Shown here in pieces: positions 2,508 to 16,704 of a DNA stretch of 20,000 bases (its first letter is position 1; each line of letters begins with the position of its first letter). The DNA lies in IMG/VR virus record IMGVR_UViG_3300023110_000008; one strand, 5' to 3'. Origin of the DNA: an uncultured virus (IMG/VR IMGVR_UViG_3300023110_000008). Taxonomy: Duplodnaviria; Heunggongvirae; Uroviricota; Caudoviricetes. The position numbers were made by a program, and so were the translations under genes. Under the pieces are notes generated by a model that was not told the origin of the DNA, did no database searches, and saw nothing but the letters and a program-made list of their open reading frames with translations.

Positions 2508-2603
2508 GGCTTCTCAGCGAACATAATAATCATATCATATGATTTGAAATCCAAACACCCCCTTTTCCAAAAAAAATTAGATTTAATAAATACCTAAAAA
2601 CCC

Positions 2604-2633
2604 CTTACAGGATCAACGTTTTTAGTGTAATAT
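2604..2633 (+). promoter_or_regulatory. Putative sigma70-type promoter for gp55 (CTTACA-N18-TAATAT)
   Basis: Same 18-bp spacing and 6-nt gap to ATG (2640) as the TTGACAATG promoters; no SD before gp55. Confidence 0.45.
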
Positions 2634-2639
2634 CCCTTT

Positions 2640-3191
2640 ATGACTACGAAAAAACAAAATGAACACTATGTAAACAACAAAGAGTTCACAGCAGCTGTCG
2701 CCGAGTTTAATGAGTCAGTTAAACTTGCCGAGTCAAAGGGGAAAACACCTCCCCAAATGTCAAACTACATAGGCGAATGTATCTATAAGATCGCTACACG
2801 ACTATCTACTAGACCAAACTTCATCAACTATACTTATAGGGATGAAATGATTTGTGATGCAATTGAAAACTGCATACAATATATCAACAATTTCAACAGA
2901 GAAAAATCAGACAATGCCTTTGCCTACGTAACACAGATTTGTTACTATGCATTTTTAAGAAGAATACAAAAGGAGAAAAAACAAGTATTCGTAAAGCAAA
3001 AACTTATCAATGAAACAGGCTTAACAGAGGTAGGATTCGATACAATAGATGGAGTATATGACCCTAGTTTGTCAAATACAAACGTTGAGTGGATGCAAGA
3101 GAATATGAATCCAGTCGAGTACGAACCAAGAAAATCAAAAAGAACAAAGAAAGCAACAACGAAAAAAAACTTAGATAACTTTACTGAATGA
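2640..3191 (+). CDS. gp55: Late-transcription sigma factor gp55
   Basis: HYVNNKEF, RPNFINYTYRDEMICDAIENC, NAFAYVTQICYYAFLRRIQKEKKQ motifs; upstream of gp47/gp46. Confidence 0.95.
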   Translation: MTTKKQNEHYVNNKEFTAAVAEFNESVKLAESKGKTPPQMSNYIGECIYKIATRLSTRPNFINYTYRDEMICDAIENCIQYINNFNREKSDNAFAYVTQICYYAFLRRIQKEKKQVFVKQKLINETGLTEVGFDTIDGVYDPSLSNTNVEWMQENMNPVEYEPRKSKRTKKATTKKNLDNFTE

Positions 3192-4255
3192 AAATAGCTC
3201 TATTAAATGATACTCATGCAGGTGTCAGAGGTGACATGGTTGCAATGGCCGAATATCAAGGTCGTTTCTACAATGAAGTCTTCTTTCCATACCTAGCTGA
3301 ACATGACATCAAACACATCATTCATTTGGGTGATTACTTTGATAGACGTAAGTATGTAAACTTTGCAAGTCTTAAGGCAAATAGAGAACACTTTATTAAA
3401 CCTATGCTTGAACAAGGCATATCTATGGACCTTATTATAGGTAACCATGATGTCTATTATAAATCAACAAACGATGTGAATGCACCAGAGTTATTACTAT
3501 TTGGTGATGATTCAATCAATGTGATCACAGAACCTTCAGTAAAAGAATACGATGGTTTTAATATTGCACTTGTACCATGGATTAATAATGAAAACTATGC
3601 AGACTCAGTAGACTTTCTGTTATCAGCAAATGCTAGTGTTTGTATGGGTCACTTTGAAATCGAAGGTGCATTGATGATGCCTGGTGCCGTGTGTTCTCAC
3701 GGTTTAGATATCAGTTACTTAAAAAGATTCGATAAAGTTTACAGTGGCCACTTTCATAGTAAATCTGAAGTGAAGAACTGTAGATATCTAGGAAGTCAAA
3801 TGCAATTTACATGGTCAGATTATGGAGACCCAAAATATTTCCATATCTTTGATACAGAAACACAAGAGTTAACACCAGTTTTAAACCCTTTAACAATGTT
3901 TGAAAAGGTATTCTATGATGATGAAAAAGAAACCTTTGAGACCATTATGAATAAAGATTACGACAAGTACTCAAACAAATTTGTTAAGGTGGTCGTAGTC
4001 AACAAAGAAAATCCATATCTATTTGACAGTATGATAGATAAGTTACATGCAGTTAATCCTTTACACATGACTGTAGTAGATGACCATAAACACATGGACT
4101 TACTATCAGATGAAGAACTCGAAGGCGTGGAAGATACATTAACAATACTCAGTAAATATATTGACTCTCTGGAGATACAAGGTGACAAAACCCAATTGTC
4201 AGAAATGATAACTTCGTTGTATAATGAAGCATTGGATGAACACGCTTATCTATGA
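3188..4255 (+). CDS. gp47: Recombination endonuclease subunit gp47 (Mre11/SbcD-like)
   Basis: Metallophosphoesterase motifs DTH, GDYFD, GNHD, GHFH. Confidence 0.95.
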   Translation: MKIALLNDTHAGVRGDMVAMAEYQGRFYNEVFFPYLAEHDIKHIIHLGDYFDRRKYVNFASLKANREHFIKPMLEQGISMDLIIGNHDVYYKSTNDVNAPELLLFGDDSINVITEPSVKEYDGFNIALVPWINNENYADSVDFLLSANASVCMGHFEIEGALMMPGAVCSHGLDISYLKRFDKVYSGHFHSKSEVKNCRYLGSQMQFTWSDYGDPKYFHIFDTETQELTPVLNPLTMFEKVFYDDEKETFETIMNKDYDKYSNKFVKVVVVNKENPYLFDSMIDKLHAVNPLHMTVVDDHKHMDLLSDEELEGVEDTLTILSKYIDSLEIQGDKTQLSEMITSLYNEALDEHAYL

Positions 4256-14348: not shown

Positions 14349-14748
14349 ACACGATATAGTAAAAGACTTAATCGAAATAACATTCCCCGAAAAAGACGAT
14401 TTTTTAAAGATAAGAGAAACCTTATCACGTATAGGCGTAGCTTCGAGGAAAGACAAAGAGTTATTTCAATCATGTCACATTCTTCATAAAAAAGGCAAGT
14501 ATTATATCGTACACTTTAAAGAACTATTTTTACTAGACGGTAAACAAACCAATATTGATGAGTCAGACATTGGTAGAAGAAACACAATCATTGATCTTTT
14601 ACAACAATGGAACTTATTGAAGGTTAATGATCCATCTAAAATATCAGAACCTAAGTCGCCTTTATCTCAAATAAAGGTAGTATCATATAAAGAAAAATCA
14701 GATTGGAAACTTACAACTAAGTATTCAATTGGTAATATAAACAACTAA
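14341..14748 (+). CDS. regA: Translational repressor RegA
   Basis: DDFLKIRETLSRIGVAS, LFQSCHILHKKGKYYIVHFKELF; ATG 14341 preferred. Confidence 0.96.
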   Translation: MDEHDIVKDLIEITFPEKDDFLKIRETLSRIGVASRKDKELFQSCHILHKKGKYYIVHFKELFLLDGKQTNIDESDIGRRNTIIDLLQQWNLLKVNDPSKISEPKSPLSQIKVVSYKEKSDWKLTTKYSIGNINN

Positions 14749-14773
14749 ATACCATAAAAAATAGGAGGTCAAT

Positions 14774-14980
14774 ATGTTTTCAGGCATAATTGATTTTATA
14801 ATGGGAATCTGGAATCTACTTATGATAGTTCCAGTTGTTATCTCAATTTGTAGTGTTATTGTCGCTATGACACCAACACCAGCAGATGACAAATTATGGG
14901 CAAAAGTCTACAAATGGTTAGAAGTACTTGCCCTAGCAATTGGTAAAGCAAAAGATAAAAACCCCTTGTTAGATAAGTAA
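14774..14980 (+). CDS. Small membrane protein, possibly holin-like
   Basis: SD AGGAGG; hydrophobic helix, TPTPADD turn, amphipathic helix and basic tail; ACTAAATA upstream. Confidence 0.65.
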   Translation: MFSGIIDFIMGIWNLLMIVPVVISICSVIVAMTPTPADDKLWAKVYKWLEVLALAIGKAKDKNPLLDK

Positions 14981-15023
14981 CGATCTGATAGGATGGTAAC
15001 TAAAACCTAATTAGGAGTACATT

Positions 15024-15305
15024 ATGGAATATTTTTTGATTGCAGTTGCAGTATTTGTGATCGGTTACTTCATAGTAAACAGAGGTAAAAGTAATACTTC
15101 TACCACTGTCACACCATCTCCAGTTCCTTCTACAAGACCAGGTGTCTCTGTAGATAGAAATGCTGACGGTGCTGTTTCTAAATTCGAGCTAAAGAAGTTA
15201 ACGAAAGTTCAACTACTTGATATGGCAGAGAAGAAGAATCTCAAAGTTAAGAGATCAGGAACAAAAGCTGAAGTAATCAATGAGATCCATTCTCAACTAA
15301 AGTAA
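15024..15305 (+). CDS. Membrane-anchored protein with C-terminal Rho-N/SAP-like helix-extended-helix domain
   Basis: SD AGGAG; N-terminal TM; T/P/S-rich linker; ELKKLTKVQLLDMAEKKNLKVKRSGTKAEVINEI. Confidence 0.7.
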   Translation: MEYFLIAVAVFVIGYFIVNRGKSNTSTTVTPSPVPSTRPGVSVDRNADGAVSKFELKKLTKVQLLDMAEKKNLKVKRSGTKAEVINEIHSQLK

Positions 15306-15323
15306 TTTTTAGTTAAAAATAAC

Positions 15324-15351
15324 AAAGGGGACATAACGTCCCCTTTTTTTT
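15324..15351 (+). terminator. Intrinsic terminator, probably bidirectional
   Basis: AAAGGGGAC-ATAAC-GTCCCCTTT stem followed by T-run; lies between convergent ORFs. Confidence 0.85.
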
Positions 15352-15354
15352 ATC

Positions 15355-15507
15355 TTAAGGATAAAAAGGGTTATCTGTAATATACTTTGGTAATTCTACA
15401 GATTCCTTCTTTTCAATTTTATAATTCTTAGCCCTAGAGCTTAGATGTTTTTCCCTAAGAGATTTTTTGACTGCTCTTTGAAAGAGCATTGCTTGATATT
15501 TAGTCAT
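15355..15507 (-). CDS. Riboswitch-associated basic 50-aa peptide (MTKYQAMLFQRAVKKSLREKHLSSRAKNYKIEKKESVELPKYITDNPFYP); below ORF-track cutoff
   Basis: GGAG SD 6 nt before ATG; starts 19 nt after second aptamer; stop lies immediately before terminator. Confidence 0.75.
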   Translation of the reverse strand: MTKYQAMLFQRAVKKSLREKHLSSRAKNYKIEKKESVELPKYITDNPFYP

Positions 15508-15526
15508 GTCAATCTCCGAAAAGATT

Positions 15527-15574
15527 GCGTTCCTTCAGCACCATTGCCTACTTCCGTCTAAAAATAGATGAACG
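15527..15574 (-). ncRNA. Glutamine riboswitch aptamer (glnA motif), copy 2
   Basis: CGUUCA-UCUA(UUUU)UAGA-CGGAAGUA-GGCA(AUGG)UGCU-GAAG-GAACGC: P1 CGUUC/GAACG, P2, P3, E-loop AGUA/GAA. Confidence 0.88.
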
Positions 15575-15581
15575 TAACAAT

Positions 15582-15633
15582 GCGTTCCTTCGTCTTATGA
15601 CTACTTCCGACCCTAGAAAAAGGGTTGAACGAT
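15582..15633 (-). ncRNA. Glutamine riboswitch aptamer (glnA motif), copy 1
   Basis: AUCGUUCA-ACCCU(UUUUCU)AGGGU-CGGAAGUA-GUC(AUAA)GAC-GAAG-GAACGC; junctions identical to copy 2, stems differ but still pair. Confidence 0.88.
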
Positions 15634-15637
15634 ACCT

Positions 15638-15653
15638 TTATTTATATAAATAA
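15638..15653. promoter_or_regulatory. Overlapping divergent T4 late promoters (TATAAATA on + 15645-15652 and on - 15646-15639)
   Basis: Perfect palindrome TTATTTATATAAATAA containing the gp55 consensus on both strands. Confidence 0.75.
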
Positions 15654-15660
15654 GAGTATA

Positions 15661-15954
15661 ATGGATGTATTCGAAATGATAACTGAGTTGGGCTTCCCTG
15701 TAGCTATCGCCTTAGTTATGGGAAGTTTTATATTCATTATCATTAAACAAATACTTCAAGGTATAGTTGATGACATTCAGACGCTTACTATGTTCTGTAA
15801 GTCACTAGAGAATCGTGCAAGAACCATGTCTAATGAAATGATTAAGATAGACATGTTAGTATCGTCAGCATTGGAACTTCGACCTGATATTGAGAGAGTT
15901 GCTCGTGCAGAGAACTTTATCGAAGACGGTAAATTGGATGTGAGAAGAGATTAA
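15661..15954 (+). CDS. Small membrane protein (TM plus coiled coil, YvrJ-like GFP motif), paralog 1
   Basis: ITELGFPVAIALVMGSFIFIII then heptad-like region; ATG 15661 preferred because TTG 15625 overlaps riboswitch/promoter. Confidence 0.75.
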   Translation: MDVFEMITELGFPVAIALVMGSFIFIIIKQILQGIVDDIQTLTMFCKSLENRARTMSNEMIKIDMLVSSALELRPDIERVARAENFIEDGKLDVRRD

Positions 15955-16244
15955 TGGAAGAATTTGACATTATCTCAAAAGTCCAAGAGTACGGATTTCC
16001 TATTATACTAGCAATTGGTCTAGGTTACTTTATTTACTATGTGTGGTGGTTCATTGGTGAACACATAGAGCCCGAAATTGAAAAGATGCATTTTGCATTG
16101 ATAAGAGTAATAGACCAAACTAGAATGTTAGACCAAGACCTTATACGACTACAACAAAAGGTTGATGTAGTTTTAGAGTATAGAGAAAACGAGAAGAAAA
16201 AGGGCAAGGTAAAAACCAATGATAAAAAGAGTTCTAGTTCTTAG
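15954..16244 (+). CDS. Small membrane protein (TM plus coiled coil, YvrJ-like GFP motif), paralog 2
   Basis: VQEYGFPIILAIGLGYFIYYVWWFI; RMLDQDLIRL aligns with RTMSNEMIKI of paralog 1. Confidence 0.75.
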   Translation: MEEFDIISKVQEYGFPIILAIGLGYFIYYVWWFIGEHIEPEIEKMHFALIRVIDQTRMLDQDLIRLQQKVDVVLEYRENEKKKGKVKTNDKKSSSS

Positions 16245-16704
16245 TCTACTATCACTACCAGTTTTAGCAGACGAGATTAAATTTGGATTTAAAAATCCAT
16301 CCTTTAGTGGTGTCGGCACAGGCGCACACTATCTGACCATTGAAAACCAAGAGTTCTCAAGAAAAAAGGCAATTGAAGATGCACTTGAATCGGCCAGAAA
16401 GGCAGCTGAAAGAGAGGCAGAAAATTCAACCCTAGCAAAATTTATACGTAACTTAGAAAGTAGAATCTACGCTCAATTTGCTAAGCAATTAGTAGAGTCT
16501 ATGTTCGCAAATGATAACCCAGCAGGTTTCGGTTCATTTGTATTAGAAGGTAACACCATTACATGGGAAGTTATCACAGATGAAACAGGTGCTGAGTTTA
16601 TCAGACTGATTGTTGTAGCAGAAGATGGTACAACCACAGAGATCACCATACCAGTAGGAACAGGAAACTTCGCACAAGATCCTGATGGTGGAAATGGTGG
16701 TTAG
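16219..16704 (+). CDS. csgF: Curli assembly protein CsgF-like
   Basis: Signal peptide ending VLA; mature N-terminus DEIKFGFKNPSFSG matches CsgF F-x-NP-x-F-x-G; LESRIYAQFAKQL; directly upstream of csgG. Confidence 0.88.
   Translation: MIKRVLVLSLLSLPVLADEIKFGFKNPSFSGVGTGAHYLTIENQEFSRKKAIEDALESARKAAEREAENSTLAKFIRNLESRIYAQFAKQLVESMFANDNPAGFGSFVLEGNTITWEVITDETGAEFIRLIVVAEDGTTTEITIPVGTGNFAQDPDGGNGG

Follow-up and report, generated by a model that had tools for sequence, protein, structure and literature searches.

We found that the window, the whole stretch of 20,000 nucleotides analysed here, carries a tandem glutamine riboswitch directly followed by the gene of a conserved basic peptide. With a probability of roughly 70%, a marine T4-like myovirus carries at this locus a self-contained unit of late transcription with glutamine-ON logic, in which late transcription would start beside the first aptamer and binding of glutamine would switch the peptide on. 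The unit occupies positions 15324-15646 as one compact minus-strand block (promoter box, aptamers, hairpin, ORF and terminator) amid plus-strand genes, and its two aptamers are the only matches to the Rfam family RF01739 in the 105-kb virus record. Its features are as follows.

15639..15646, minus strand: putative T4-type late promoter box TATAAATA, followed by 5 nt (AAGGT) and then aptamer 1
15579..15633, minus strand: glutamine riboswitch aptamer 1 (RF01739, glnA RNA type 1; 66.3 bits, E 5.4e-13, model positions 1-53 of 53, not truncated)
15524..15576, minus strand: glutamine riboswitch aptamer 2 (RF01739; 56.8 bits, E 2.3e-10, model positions 1-53 of 53)
15510..15527, minus strand: predicted expression-platform hairpin (7 pairs, -5.6 kcal/mol) containing the GGAG Shine-Dalgarno (SD) sequence at 15517..15514
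15355..15507, minus strand: ORF of 50 codons plus stop, MTKYQAMLFQRAVKKSLREKHLSSRAKNYKIEKKESVELPKYITDNPFYP (ATG at 15507, stop at 15357..15355)
15324..15346, both strands: two-way intrinsic terminator, common to the minus-strand unit and the converging plus-strand gene 15024..15305

All the minus-strand elements that the original prediction had listed (tandem aptamers, box, hairpin, ORF and terminator) are present. Its interpretation stands for the tandem riboswitch, the late-type promoter, the SD hairpin, the conserved basic ORF and the terminator, but the link that it drew to cyanobacterial gifB (IF17) is a mere analogy. The terminator, a stem-loop at 15346..15324 with a T run, lies just beyond the stretch that had been marked out; it has 10 pairs (5 G-C) and a T run on the minus strand and 9 pairs and a T run on the plus strand, and the scanned stretch holds 6 terminator-like sites, compared with 0.6 expected. 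To the question of what glutamine riboswitches control outside cyanobacteria, this locus and its relatives offer a concrete candidate answer, in which the product would be a tiny conserved peptide and the platform a gifB-type SD hairpin.

Glutamine riboswitches are an established class. To place the leader RNA, all 4227 Rfam families were scanned at their gathering scores, and RF01739, with a gathering score of 35, was the sole family found in the window. Both aptamers exceed this cut-off over the full model, at 66.3 and 56.8 bits, which makes the proposed tandem glutamine riboswitch genuine; the Downstream-peptide model (RF01704, glutamine-II), which had been named as a second check, gave no match in the window. 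The aptamers contain a three-helix junction with the conserved CGUUCA, CGGAAGUAG and GAAGGAACGC, and zero pairs are non-standard relative to the consensus. The alignment also bears out the earlier observation that the junction sequences are common to both aptamers while their P2 and P3 stems are different yet pair; these stems vary between the two copies in the window and among 27 distinct leaders of the peptide family. The linker described between GAAGGAACGC of aptamer 1 and CGUUCA of aptamer 2 is indeed 7 nt long (AUUGUUA), and the gap measured by the ends of the Rfam model is 2 nt. In the minimum free energy fold of the whole transcript, the 3' strand of aptamer 1 P1 pairs with the 5' strand of aptamer 2 P1, so other folds compete with the tandem-aptamer fold.

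The SD-containing hairpin predicted after aptamer 2 was found at 15527..15510. Its 5' arm begins at the C after P1 of aptamer 2 (15527), and its 3' arm takes in three of the four GGAG bases (15517..15514), the first G lying in the loop. The aptamers are thus placed in cis in the 5' leader, with a platform that would tie ligand binding to expression through an SD hairpin anchored on the C after P1. The same arrangement recurs throughout the family: in all 16 distinct platform sequences obtained from the 27 distinct leaders, the GGAG region is paired with a stretch made up of the C after GGAACG and the 4-7 bases behind it, giving predicted hairpins of -4.2 to -9.5 kcal/mol. The two arms show compensating changes, with CAAUCUU/GAGAUUG in the window, CAUCU/AGAUG in most leaders and CAUUUUCC/GGAGAAUG in locus L012.

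The predicted hairpin design matches the glutamine-ON type proposed for cyanobacterial gifB. In the available text of Klahn et al. 2018 (PMC6212724), expression from the gifB riboswitch rises with glutamine, and ligand binding is postulated to melt the helix formed by the C after P1 with the ribosome-binding site. By analogy, the leader RNA would fold into two glutamine aptamers, of which the second alone would contact the expression platform. At low glutamine, the C after P1 of aptamer 2 and the next six bases would pair with the SD region, blocking ribosomes. When glutamine is bound, the C would be pulled into the long-range pair of the aptamer, the weak hairpin would open and the 50-residue peptide would be translated, making the device a translational ON switch. 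One alternative is an OFF switch, in which glutamine stabilises a structure that hides the ribosome-binding site, so that the peptide is made under nitrogen scarcity. This polarity would be intuitive in marine Alphaproteobacteria, where aptamers of this class lie in front of genes for ammonium transporters and glutamine synthetase. We nevertheless consider an OFF switch quite unlikely, given that the platform here is of the gifB type, in which the C after P1 opens an SD-blocking hairpin and for which an ON response has been measured (Klahn et al. 2018, in the text available), and that the alphaproteobacterial leaders differ in sequence 3' of the aptamers.

A separate idea concerned the linker after aptamer 1 as a second anti-SD. 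CAUCUU is present 3' of both aptamers in loci L006, L013, L016, L017 and L020 and in the SAR86 leaders; among the leaders compared, the window, L004, L008, L009 and L021 do not have it behind both aptamers. Because only some leaders have CAUCUU after both aptamers, this idea was dropped as a general mechanism.

Two published systems are close to this leader. With that of Synechocystis gifB, as presented in the available text (PMC6212724), it has in common an RF01739 aptamer and a C after P1 that pairs with the ribosome-binding site, as well as a small basic protein product and an expected ON response to glutamine. The two differ in the number of aptamers (one in gifB, two here), in the promoter (an NtcA-controlled host promoter there, a putative phage late promoter here), in the product, which in the window is unrelated in sequence to IF17, IF7 and DUF4278, and in the bearer, which here is a virus, the cellular counterpart of the cassette being in SAR86, whereas gifB belongs to cyanobacteria. 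The tandem glutamine riboswitches of marine bacteria likewise have two aptamers a few nucleotides apart and one common downstream region, according to the available text on the work of Ames and Breaker 2011 (summarised in PMC5066625 and PMC2864571). A 2016 paper says of the tandem glutamine riboswitches that they had no known expression platform; by contrast, the window has a conserved SD-sequestering hairpin after the last aptamer, and single-aptamer versions of its cassette exist.

Comparison with relatives also bears on how the unit would be transcribed. The box proposed about 5 nt upstream of aptamer 1 is present as TATAAATA at 15646..15639, with AAGGT as the spacer. It is half of a 14-nt palindrome, TATTTATATAAATA (15639-15652), and the same box is therefore found on the plus strand too. 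TATAAATA occurs 2 times in the window compared with 1.77 expected, which is chance level, so that support for a promoter comes from the relatives and not from the bare count. In the whole record it occurs 14 times on the main gene strand versus 2 on the other. Upstream of aptamer 1, at a distance of 6-24 nt, [TG]ATAAATA stands in 26 of 26 phage leaders of the peptide family; ATAAATA occurs within 120 nt in 0 of 9 cell leaders. A T4-type late promoter is a box that lacks a -35 element and works with the sliding clamp and a sigma factor of the gp55 type. Genes for a gp55-type late sigma factor, a sliding clamp and a clamp loader lie in the window, so the box, the gp55-like sigma and the clamp of such a promoter are all present by sequence. 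These data support a role of TATAAATA at 15646..15639 as a T4-type late promoter, from which transcription with the gp55 sigma and the sliding clamp would start a few bases past the box, at or beside the first base of aptamer 1. When contigs of four metatranscriptome runs were compared with 14700-16300, none covered the ORF, and such contigs cannot show starts, ends or strand, so that they speak neither for nor against transcription. The contig pieces over 15493-15594 have 3 letter differences and 2 gaps and continue into unlike sequence, indicating that their source is not this phage but relatives of the cassette.

Judged by its conservation, the ORF at 15355..15507 is a real gene of a conserved small-peptide family. 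The family, with members of 38-66 residues in 27 clusters at 50% identity, has invariant or nearly invariant ends, MTKYQ at the N terminus and YITDNPFYP at the C terminus. Differences among its ORFs number 1304, 657 and 3626 at the first, second and third codon positions. Family conservation, the MTKYQ and YITDNPFYP ends and third-position variation thus identify the suggested 50-codon basic ORF as a gene, and its coding conservation downstream of homologous aptamers, which the original prediction had made a test, is borne out by the homologues and by their linkage to the riboswitch. A profile search of 1.84 billion proteins returned 27 short clusters, and public metagenome protein sets contain 20 homologues of 40-62 residues. 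The claim that the ORF is unannotated and falls below the usual cut-offs holds only in part: gene callers predicted the homologues in the public metagenome sets (20 matches), and the exact peptide is in the ESM Atlas. One source names some homologues 'hypothetical protein'.

The peptide of the window has 50 residues, with 12 Lys/Arg versus 5 Asp/Glu by direct count, and AlphaFold2 predicts a helix over residues 3-35 (mean pLDDT 80.6). It would consist of one long basic helix and an invariant aromatic, proline-rich C-terminal tail, and it most likely works by binding a host protein. It had no match in Pfam (E up to 10), NCBIfam or PHROGs, and a Pfam scan of 21 family members gave scattered matches only, all with E > 0.03. 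In isolate phages, the 401-nt unit had no DNA match, and tblastn with the peptide returned three chance matches only (E at least 1, Salmonella phages). A sequence search of the PDB gave one chance match (E 2.5), the ESM Atlas no usable neighbour and Foldseek no match with the peptide model, a single helix being a poor query. Our literature search found no paper on the MTKYQ...NPFYP family.

The peptide is linked to the riboswitch: at 32 of the 33 viral loci that encode the peptide, and at 9 of the 10 cellular ones, the riboswitch stands directly upstream. Two RF01739 matches directly precede the peptide at 28 of the viral loci and one match at 4 (L018, L023, L025 and L026), and the remaining locus is cut by a contig end; nine cellular loci have two matches and one is cut. 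The original prediction had overlooked that glutamine riboswitches have already been published in marine myophages, namely in the OM43 phage Melnitz, the Pelagibacter phage Mosig and virome-assembled pelagimyophages, and the window resembles these as a T4-like phage of a streamlined heterotroph-type lineage with an RF01739 aptamer (PMC9004378, available text). In the available text of Buchholz et al. 2022 (PMC9004378), the only phage paper on the function of these riboswitches that our search found, the riboswitch is read as controlling tmRNA, perhaps lysis, and no peptide is named. In Mosig, we found the aptamer after a CATAAATA box and directly before a basic ORF of 51 residues; it is a single aptamer, compared with two in the window. 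The Mosig peptide was rejected as a member of the family, as hhalign finds just a five-residue motif (ITDNP/FTDDP).

These phages raise the possibility that the RNA is the product and the ORF incidental, with the riboswitch either acting on an RNA gene next to it or itself serving as a small RNA that senses glutamine. The placement of the Melnitz riboswitch in the ssrA 3' domain, and its reading as tmRNA control, would agree with this (Buchholz et al. 2022, PMC9004378, available text). We regard it as highly improbable for the present unit: the ORF is conserved as a protein and in the family is invariably placed at SD distance behind the aptamers, the unit is closed by a terminator of its own, and the Mosig riboswitch also stands directly before an annotated ORF, Mosig_00116. 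Moreover, among viral riboswitch loci in general, 106 of 120 contain, within 70 nt, an ORF of 18-81 codons that begins with ATG.

The unit of riboswitch and peptide is also chromosomal in SAR86-type Gammaproteobacteria, which the original prediction had missed. Scanning 185,579 species for the motif yielded 8 loci, of which 5 are titled SAR86 cluster, including one complete chromosome; most records with cellular copies bear this title, and 12 of 201 sampled genomes of the SAR86-type order match. The cellular cassettes neighbour ilvBHC, a TonB receptor, AhpC/AhpF-type genes, a LysR regulator, a Zn-dehydrogenase and a 5'-nucleotidase. In phages the position varies, directly after the major head protein gene at some loci (L015, L023 and L032) and among tail genes at others (L008, L016 and L019). 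The cassette is thus common to SAR86 chromosomes and several T4-like phage lineages, and the phages appear to replace the host promoter with a late promoter. A maximum-likelihood tree was built from 35 distinct cassettes, 28 of phages and 7 of cells, with the truncated L005 excluded; six of the cell rows group in a single clade (100/99) and the seventh joins a long phage branch. The backbone support of 19/63 leaves the placement of the branch with the leader and peptide of the window unsettled and, being weak, allows no donor to be named for transfer between cell and phage. The clamp loader is 60.0% identical to those of cyanomyoviruses versus 60.1-61.9% for Pelagibacter phages, values too near equal to discriminate the host of the phage, and a search of the 105-kb record (about 58% complete) for Photo_RC (psbA-type) gave no match. 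The cassette itself offers a possible host marker for uncultured phages and a candidate small-protein regulator in a marine bacterium that is abundant and little studied.

The resemblance to gifB invites the guess that the peptide inhibits glutamine synthetase, although the proposed connection to gifB/IF17 is one of analogy only: there is no detectable sequence or profile similarity to IF7, IF17 or DUF4278. Our best guess at a target is a protein that acts in nitrogen assimilation in a SAR86-like host, such as the type II glutamine synthetase of that host, although we give this specific target a low probability. Equally low is the probability that the peptide is the viral counterpart of IF7/IF17, shutting down host glutamine synthetase when glutamine is plentiful. 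The predicted regulatory logic and platform are the same as in gifB, and the peptide is small, basic and, in the AlphaFold2 model, helical. In addition, 5 of 5 peptide-bearing genomes of the SAR86-type order contain a type-II-like glutamine synthetase of 323-329 residues (Gln-synt_N and Gln-synt_C), and none of the five has a match to the GlnE adenylyltransferase, which the control search found in E. coli, Caulobacter and Corynebacterium. A protein inhibitor would fill the regulatory gap that this combination suggests; the missing GlnE is weak evidence, as the completeness of the five genomes is unstated. IF7 and IF17 bind type I glutamine synthetase, whereas the likely target here would be the type II enzyme. 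Against a counterpart of IF7/IF17 there is also the lack of similarity to IF7-like or DUF4278-like sequences: hhalign gave the family profile a probability of 0.05% with IF7-like peptides and 0.07% with riboswitch-linked DUF4278-like peptides, and 1 of 21 family members touched DUF4278 (PF14105), at E 0.08. A complex prediction with two copies of a 323-residue type-II-like glutamine synthetase and the peptide of the same genome, run without controls, scored 0.25 compared with a mark of 0.32, a result that counts neither for nor against binding. A peptide-bearing SAR86 genome with the 323-residue enzyme also encodes a GS-like enzyme of 464 residues and two PII proteins.

Alternatively, the peptide may serve the late programme of the phage (assembly, packaging or lysis timing), with glutamine as a proxy for the biosynthetic state and no action on host nitrogen. 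Consistent with this, the unit has a putative late promoter, the cassette lies beside the major head protein gene or among tail genes in several phages, and the available text of Buchholz et al. 2022 (PMC9004378) speculates on a link to lysis for the Melnitz riboswitch. However, SAR86-type cells that are not infected carry this cassette amid their housekeeping genes, which implies a cellular function of the peptide, and the position of the cassette in phage genomes is not fixed, which is more in keeping with a mobile accessory gene than with a module for structure or lysis. A purely late function thus appears rather unlikely.

Extending the nitrogen-assimilation reading to the whole family, the MTKYQ...NPFYP peptides may be new SAR86-specific, glutamine-gated regulators of nitrogen assimilation, rewired by marine myophages to a late promoter. 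They would be functional analogues of the cyanobacterial inactivating factors, with type II glutamine synthetase or some other protein of nitrogen handling as their target in cells without GlnE. We hold this proposal to be unlikely. If it is true, the late-promoter version in the phages would fix host nitrogen flux during particle production, and the cassette would be the first sequence marker by which a group of uncultured T4-like phages is tied to SAR86 as host. The same strategy would then recur, in host-specific form, in the many other small-peptide families that lie behind glutamine riboswitches of phages. Cyanophage cassettes with YRG (DUF4278-like) peptides are similar in that a phage glutamine riboswitch precedes very small basic peptides, but they encode another peptide family, whose profile does not match, and the cellular counterpart of our family is SAR86, not picocyanobacteria. 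Some members of our family carry an internal YRGV motif.

Read along the minus strand from 15646 to 15324, the unit contains the following elements in order.

Elements of the riboswitch unit
first element, from 15646, minus strand: late box TATAAATA, 5 bases from aptamer 1 (direct reading)
between the late box and the SD hairpin, minus strand: two glutamine riboswitch aptamers (Rfam RF01739)
3' of the aptamers, minus strand: short hairpin containing GGAG (direct reading)
15507..15355, minus strand: ORF of 50 codons, with its ATG six bases 3' of GGAG (direct reading)
last element, down to 15324, called on both strands: G+C-rich stem-loop with a T run, terminator-like (terminator scan)

Consistent with the original prediction of a tandem glutamine riboswitch, Rfam covariance models run over both strands of the whole window returned two full-length RF01739 matches (66.3 and 56.8 bits; gathering score 35) and no other Rfam family. 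Beyond this pair, no further RF01739 match was found in the 105,279-base virus record. The predicted promoter box, SD hairpin, 50-codon ORF and terminator were all present, with the terminator lying slightly beyond the predicted coordinates. RNA-library contigs from three runs (X12, X13 and X18) over the plus-strand genes at 14700-15329 end at 15323-15329, the foot of this two-way terminator. These end points hint weakly at a terminator that acts on the plus-strand transcript, as contigs cannot prove an RNA end.

The source of the window is a marine T4-like myovirus. Its large genes in the window all lie on the plus strand and have T4-type replication and late-transcription functions, encoding a helicase, a gp55-like late sigma factor, gp46/47-like nuclease subunits, a sliding clamp, a clamp loader and a RegA-like repressor. 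The clamp loader shares 61.9% identity with its counterpart in Pelagibacter phage Mosig, 60.1% with that in HTVC008M and 60.0% with that in Synechococcus phage S-SM2, and a large peptidase is less than 60% identical to every one of 464 matching records, mostly from cyanomyoviruses. A reaction-centre (psbA-type) gene was not found in the record, which is about 58% complete. The plus-strand block diverging from the riboswitch unit begins with two adjacent paralogues (15661-15954 and 15954-16244; 97 and 96 residues), both matching phrog_18771 (E = 2.9e-25 and 2.5e-25), a family without an assigned function.

We then considered whether the unit is transcribed from a late promoter. The window contains two copies of TATAAATA, the number expected by chance, and both fall within one perfect 14-base palindrome at 15639-15652 (TATTTATATAAATA) that includes the late box. 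Because of this palindrome, the plus strand also carries TATAAATA (15645-15652), with 8 bases between it and the start codon of the diverging gene (ATG at 15661). What supports a late promoter is therefore not the window count but three other observations. Across the whole record, the strand encoding 54 of the 63 ORFs of at least 200 codons has 14 copies of TATAAATA and the opposite strand has two, one of these two being the box of the unit; TATAAATA or GATAAATA lies 6-24 bases before aptamer 1 in every one of the 26 distinct phage leaders that extend far enough upstream; and ATAAATA is absent within 120 bases upstream in all nine cellular leaders. Late transcription in T4 begins about six bases after the box, and by this spacing rule the transcript of the unit would begin with the base at which the Rfam model starts. 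Several TATAAATA boxes elsewhere in the record lie only 5-6 bases before an ATG, which suggests that the source phage makes leaderless or near-leaderless late mRNAs.

In most phage relatives (loci L006, L008, L009, L013, L015-L017 and L020-L035), a small hairpin lies about 20 nt before aptamer 1, between it and the late box; the window lacks this hairpin. Some of these palindromes read TGTA-N8-TACA and so resemble an NtcA site, but spacings range from 8 to 10, and the arms covary (GTAAC/GTTAC, GTAAT/ATTAC, GAGTAA/TTACTC). The more likely reading is a 5' RNA stem-loop rather than a protein-binding site. Two cellular leaders (L183 and L184) have a similar palindrome.

The 50-codon ORF encodes a peptide with 12 Lys/Arg and 5 Asp/Glu residues. 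In a word-indexed search of 5.8 billion proteins, 20 homologues came up, 40-62 residues long and 49-90% identical. A profile search through all 1.84 billion cluster representatives gave 28 matches at E ≤ 0.001, 27 of them of 38-66 residues; the remaining match, a 1246-residue protein aligned over 14 residues only, was left out. The family has a constant MTKYQ start, a RAVKK-type basic helix and a LPxYITDNPFYP C-terminal tail, which ends in NPWY in one subgroup, around a middle part of variable sequence and length. When 32 distinct coding sequences were compared at their first 5 and last 13 codons, codon positions 1, 2 and 3 showed 1304, 657 and 3626 differences, respectively, a count in which a few MTNQ-starting rows are offset by one codon in the first block. 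The expectation that a small basic ORF is conserved behind homologous aptamers thus held, through the homologues in protein sets and IMG/VR and the third-position excess, and these patterns indicate that the ORF is a gene. Given the family alignment, AlphaFold2 predicted a single helix (residues 3-35) and, within the tail, a short turn (mean pLDDT 80.6). Family libraries (Pfam, NCBIfam and PHROGs), solved structures and ESM Atlas neighbours gave no function, and a full-text literature search, judged from listed papers and text passages, found no description of the family.

A scan of IMG/VR with the C-terminal motif yielded 33 peptide-encoding loci. Directly upstream of the peptide, Rfam found two RF01739 aptamers in 28 loci and one in four (L018, L023, L025 and L026), so the tandem arrangement is usual but not obligatory; the last locus (L005) had none, its contig ending 45 bases before the start codon. 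In phages the cassette can follow the major head gene, sit amid tail genes or, in the window, lie inverted between replication-side genes, a variable position that fits a mobile accessory gene.

To examine how the aptamers might control the peptide, we compared the expression platforms, defined as the stretch from the last GGAACG to the start codon (34 leaders, giving 27 distinct leaders and 16 distinct platforms). In predicted folds, all 16 form a hairpin (-4.2 to -9.5 kcal/mol) with the C after P1 as its first base and the end of GGAG within its 3' arm. Its arms covary: CAAUCUU/GAGAUUG in the window, CAUCU/AGAUG in most leaders and CAUUUUCC/GGAGAAUG in the phage locus L012. The cyanobacterial leaders examined have the same layout (GCCUC ... 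GGAGGC). Expression from the gifB riboswitch increases when glutamine rises, and crystal structures led Klahn et al. 2018 (PMC6212724) to postulate that the ligand melts a helix formed by the post-P1 nucleotides and the ribosome-binding site. Because the conserved SD hairpin matches this proposed helix, we infer that the unit is a translational ON switch, with its direction taken from gifB. For tandem glutamine riboswitches, the available text of Ruff et al. 2016 reports non-cooperative binding in vitro and an expression platform not identified at that time. The hairpin conserved behind aptamer 2 would fill this gap for the present peptide family. In the predicted fold of the whole transcript, the 3' strand of the first P1 pairs with the 5' strand of the second P1; such an alternative fold could disable both aptamers together and might sharpen the response. 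In many phage and SAR86 leaders, an AUG inside the 3' arm of the SD hairpin opens a two-codon frame whose UGA stop overlaps the authentic start codon (…GGAGAUGUUAUGAC… or …GGAGAUGACAUGAC…); in the window this position reads AUU, so the feature is not universal.

Scanning 185,579 species genomes for the aptamer core gave at least 122 stretches. Among the 80 loci examined, the next ORF encodes an IF7-like or YRG-repeat (DUF4278-like) peptide in cyanobacteria, an ammonium transporter, glutamine synthetase or other enzyme, often after tandem aptamers, in marine Alphaproteobacteria, and sometimes a small peptide with a family-like start in SAR86 and other Gammaproteobacteria MAGs. The alphaproteobacterial tandem loci (L042, L068, L078, L079, L081, L085, L099 and others, some in records titled Pelagibacteraceae or SAR116), where ammonium transporter-like and glutamine synthetase-like genes come next, have a distinct conserved sequence after the aptamers (…CCATAGCTAAGCATG…), probably another type of platform.

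Of 201 genomes sampled from the SAR86-type order, 12 matched the family profile at E ≤ 0.01; E was below 1e-12 for seven of the 12, and two among the weakest appear spurious. Two RF01739 aptamers lie directly upstream in nine of ten cellular loci, and the tenth ends at a contig edge. A motif scan of all species genomes, using an alignment that includes the cellular version, found eight loci: five titled SAR86 cluster (one a complete chromosome), two titled uncultured Gammaproteobacteria and one on an 823-base contig of an Acidimicrobiales MAG, which we take to be misbinned. The cellular contigs otherwise carry routine cellular genes, among them ilvB/H/C, TonB-dependent receptor, transporter and AhpC/AhpF-type genes, as well as a LysR regulator, Zn-dehydrogenase and 5'-nucleotidase. 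Phage and cell cassettes are 74-94% identical over 80-215 bases, much of it conserved aptamer core, and the best match of the window cassette is 78% over 110 bases. A tree built from 35 distinct cassettes places six cell rows in one clade (100/99) on an unresolved backbone. The cassette is clearly common to SAR86-type cells and several phage lineages.

By analogy with gifB, the peptide might inhibit glutamine synthetase; the evidence is mixed, and we consider this target unlikely. Profile-profile comparison found no similarity to eleven riboswitch-linked DUF4278-like and eleven IF7-like peptides; some family members have an internal YRGV motif, and one of 21 gave a marginal hit to DUF4278 (E = 0.08). 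Each of five peptide-bearing genomes has two PII genes and an enzyme of 323-329 residues that combines Gln-synt_N and Gln-synt_C domains and resembles a type II glutamine synthetase, and none has a GlnE or type III N-domain match. Three of the five also encode a 464-471 residue glutamine synthetase-like protein, which in the one genome checked scored 201.5 against the NCBIfam type I cut-off of 429.15. A protein regulator of glutamine synthetase in peptide-bearing cells is plausible on circumstantial grounds. At L188, in one peptide-bearing genome (G018), a glutamine synthetase-like gene (464 residues; ORF 1147-2541) that falls below the cut-offs of type I and type III glutamine synthetase and gamma-glutamylputrescine synthetase is followed by a 366-residue ORF (2544-3644) with no NCBIfam match.

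The RNA adds a new member to a known riboswitch class, and a glutamine riboswitch gating a small protein is a known design. Glutamine riboswitches in marine phages have also been published: Melnitz, Mosig and pelagimyophage genomes carry them, and Buchholz et al. 2022 (PMC9004378) read them as controlling tmRNA and perhaps lysis, with no peptide named in the available text; the introductions of two cyanophage papers mention the riboswitch. What is new in the window unit is that a probable phage late promoter drives it, that it would gate a new peptide family and that SAR86 shares the cassette. Mosig has a single aptamer after a CATAAATA box, directly before an annotated 51-residue hypothetical protein (Mosig_00116) that has no detectable relationship to the MTKYQ...NPFYP family.

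The aptamer pattern matched at least 120 loci in IMG/VR (L203-L322). Of the 120 viral loci listed, 106 have an ORF of 18-81 codons whose ATG lies within 70 bases, and these ORFs sort by eye into at least eight unrelated-looking families, small and mostly basic. The MTKYQ...NPFYP family accounts for six of the loci listed, plus two whose second aptamer escaped the pattern. Among the matches listed, most of the peptides (26-81 residues) are preceded by a TAAATA-type box. They include a Mosig-like family ending in DPRLQ, several Trp/Cys-containing families of 28-38 residues, YRG-repeat peptides and peptides of 63-65 residues with an NGxGTSGY core, the last of which also lie behind a riboswitch in a Pelagibacteraceae MAG (L115).
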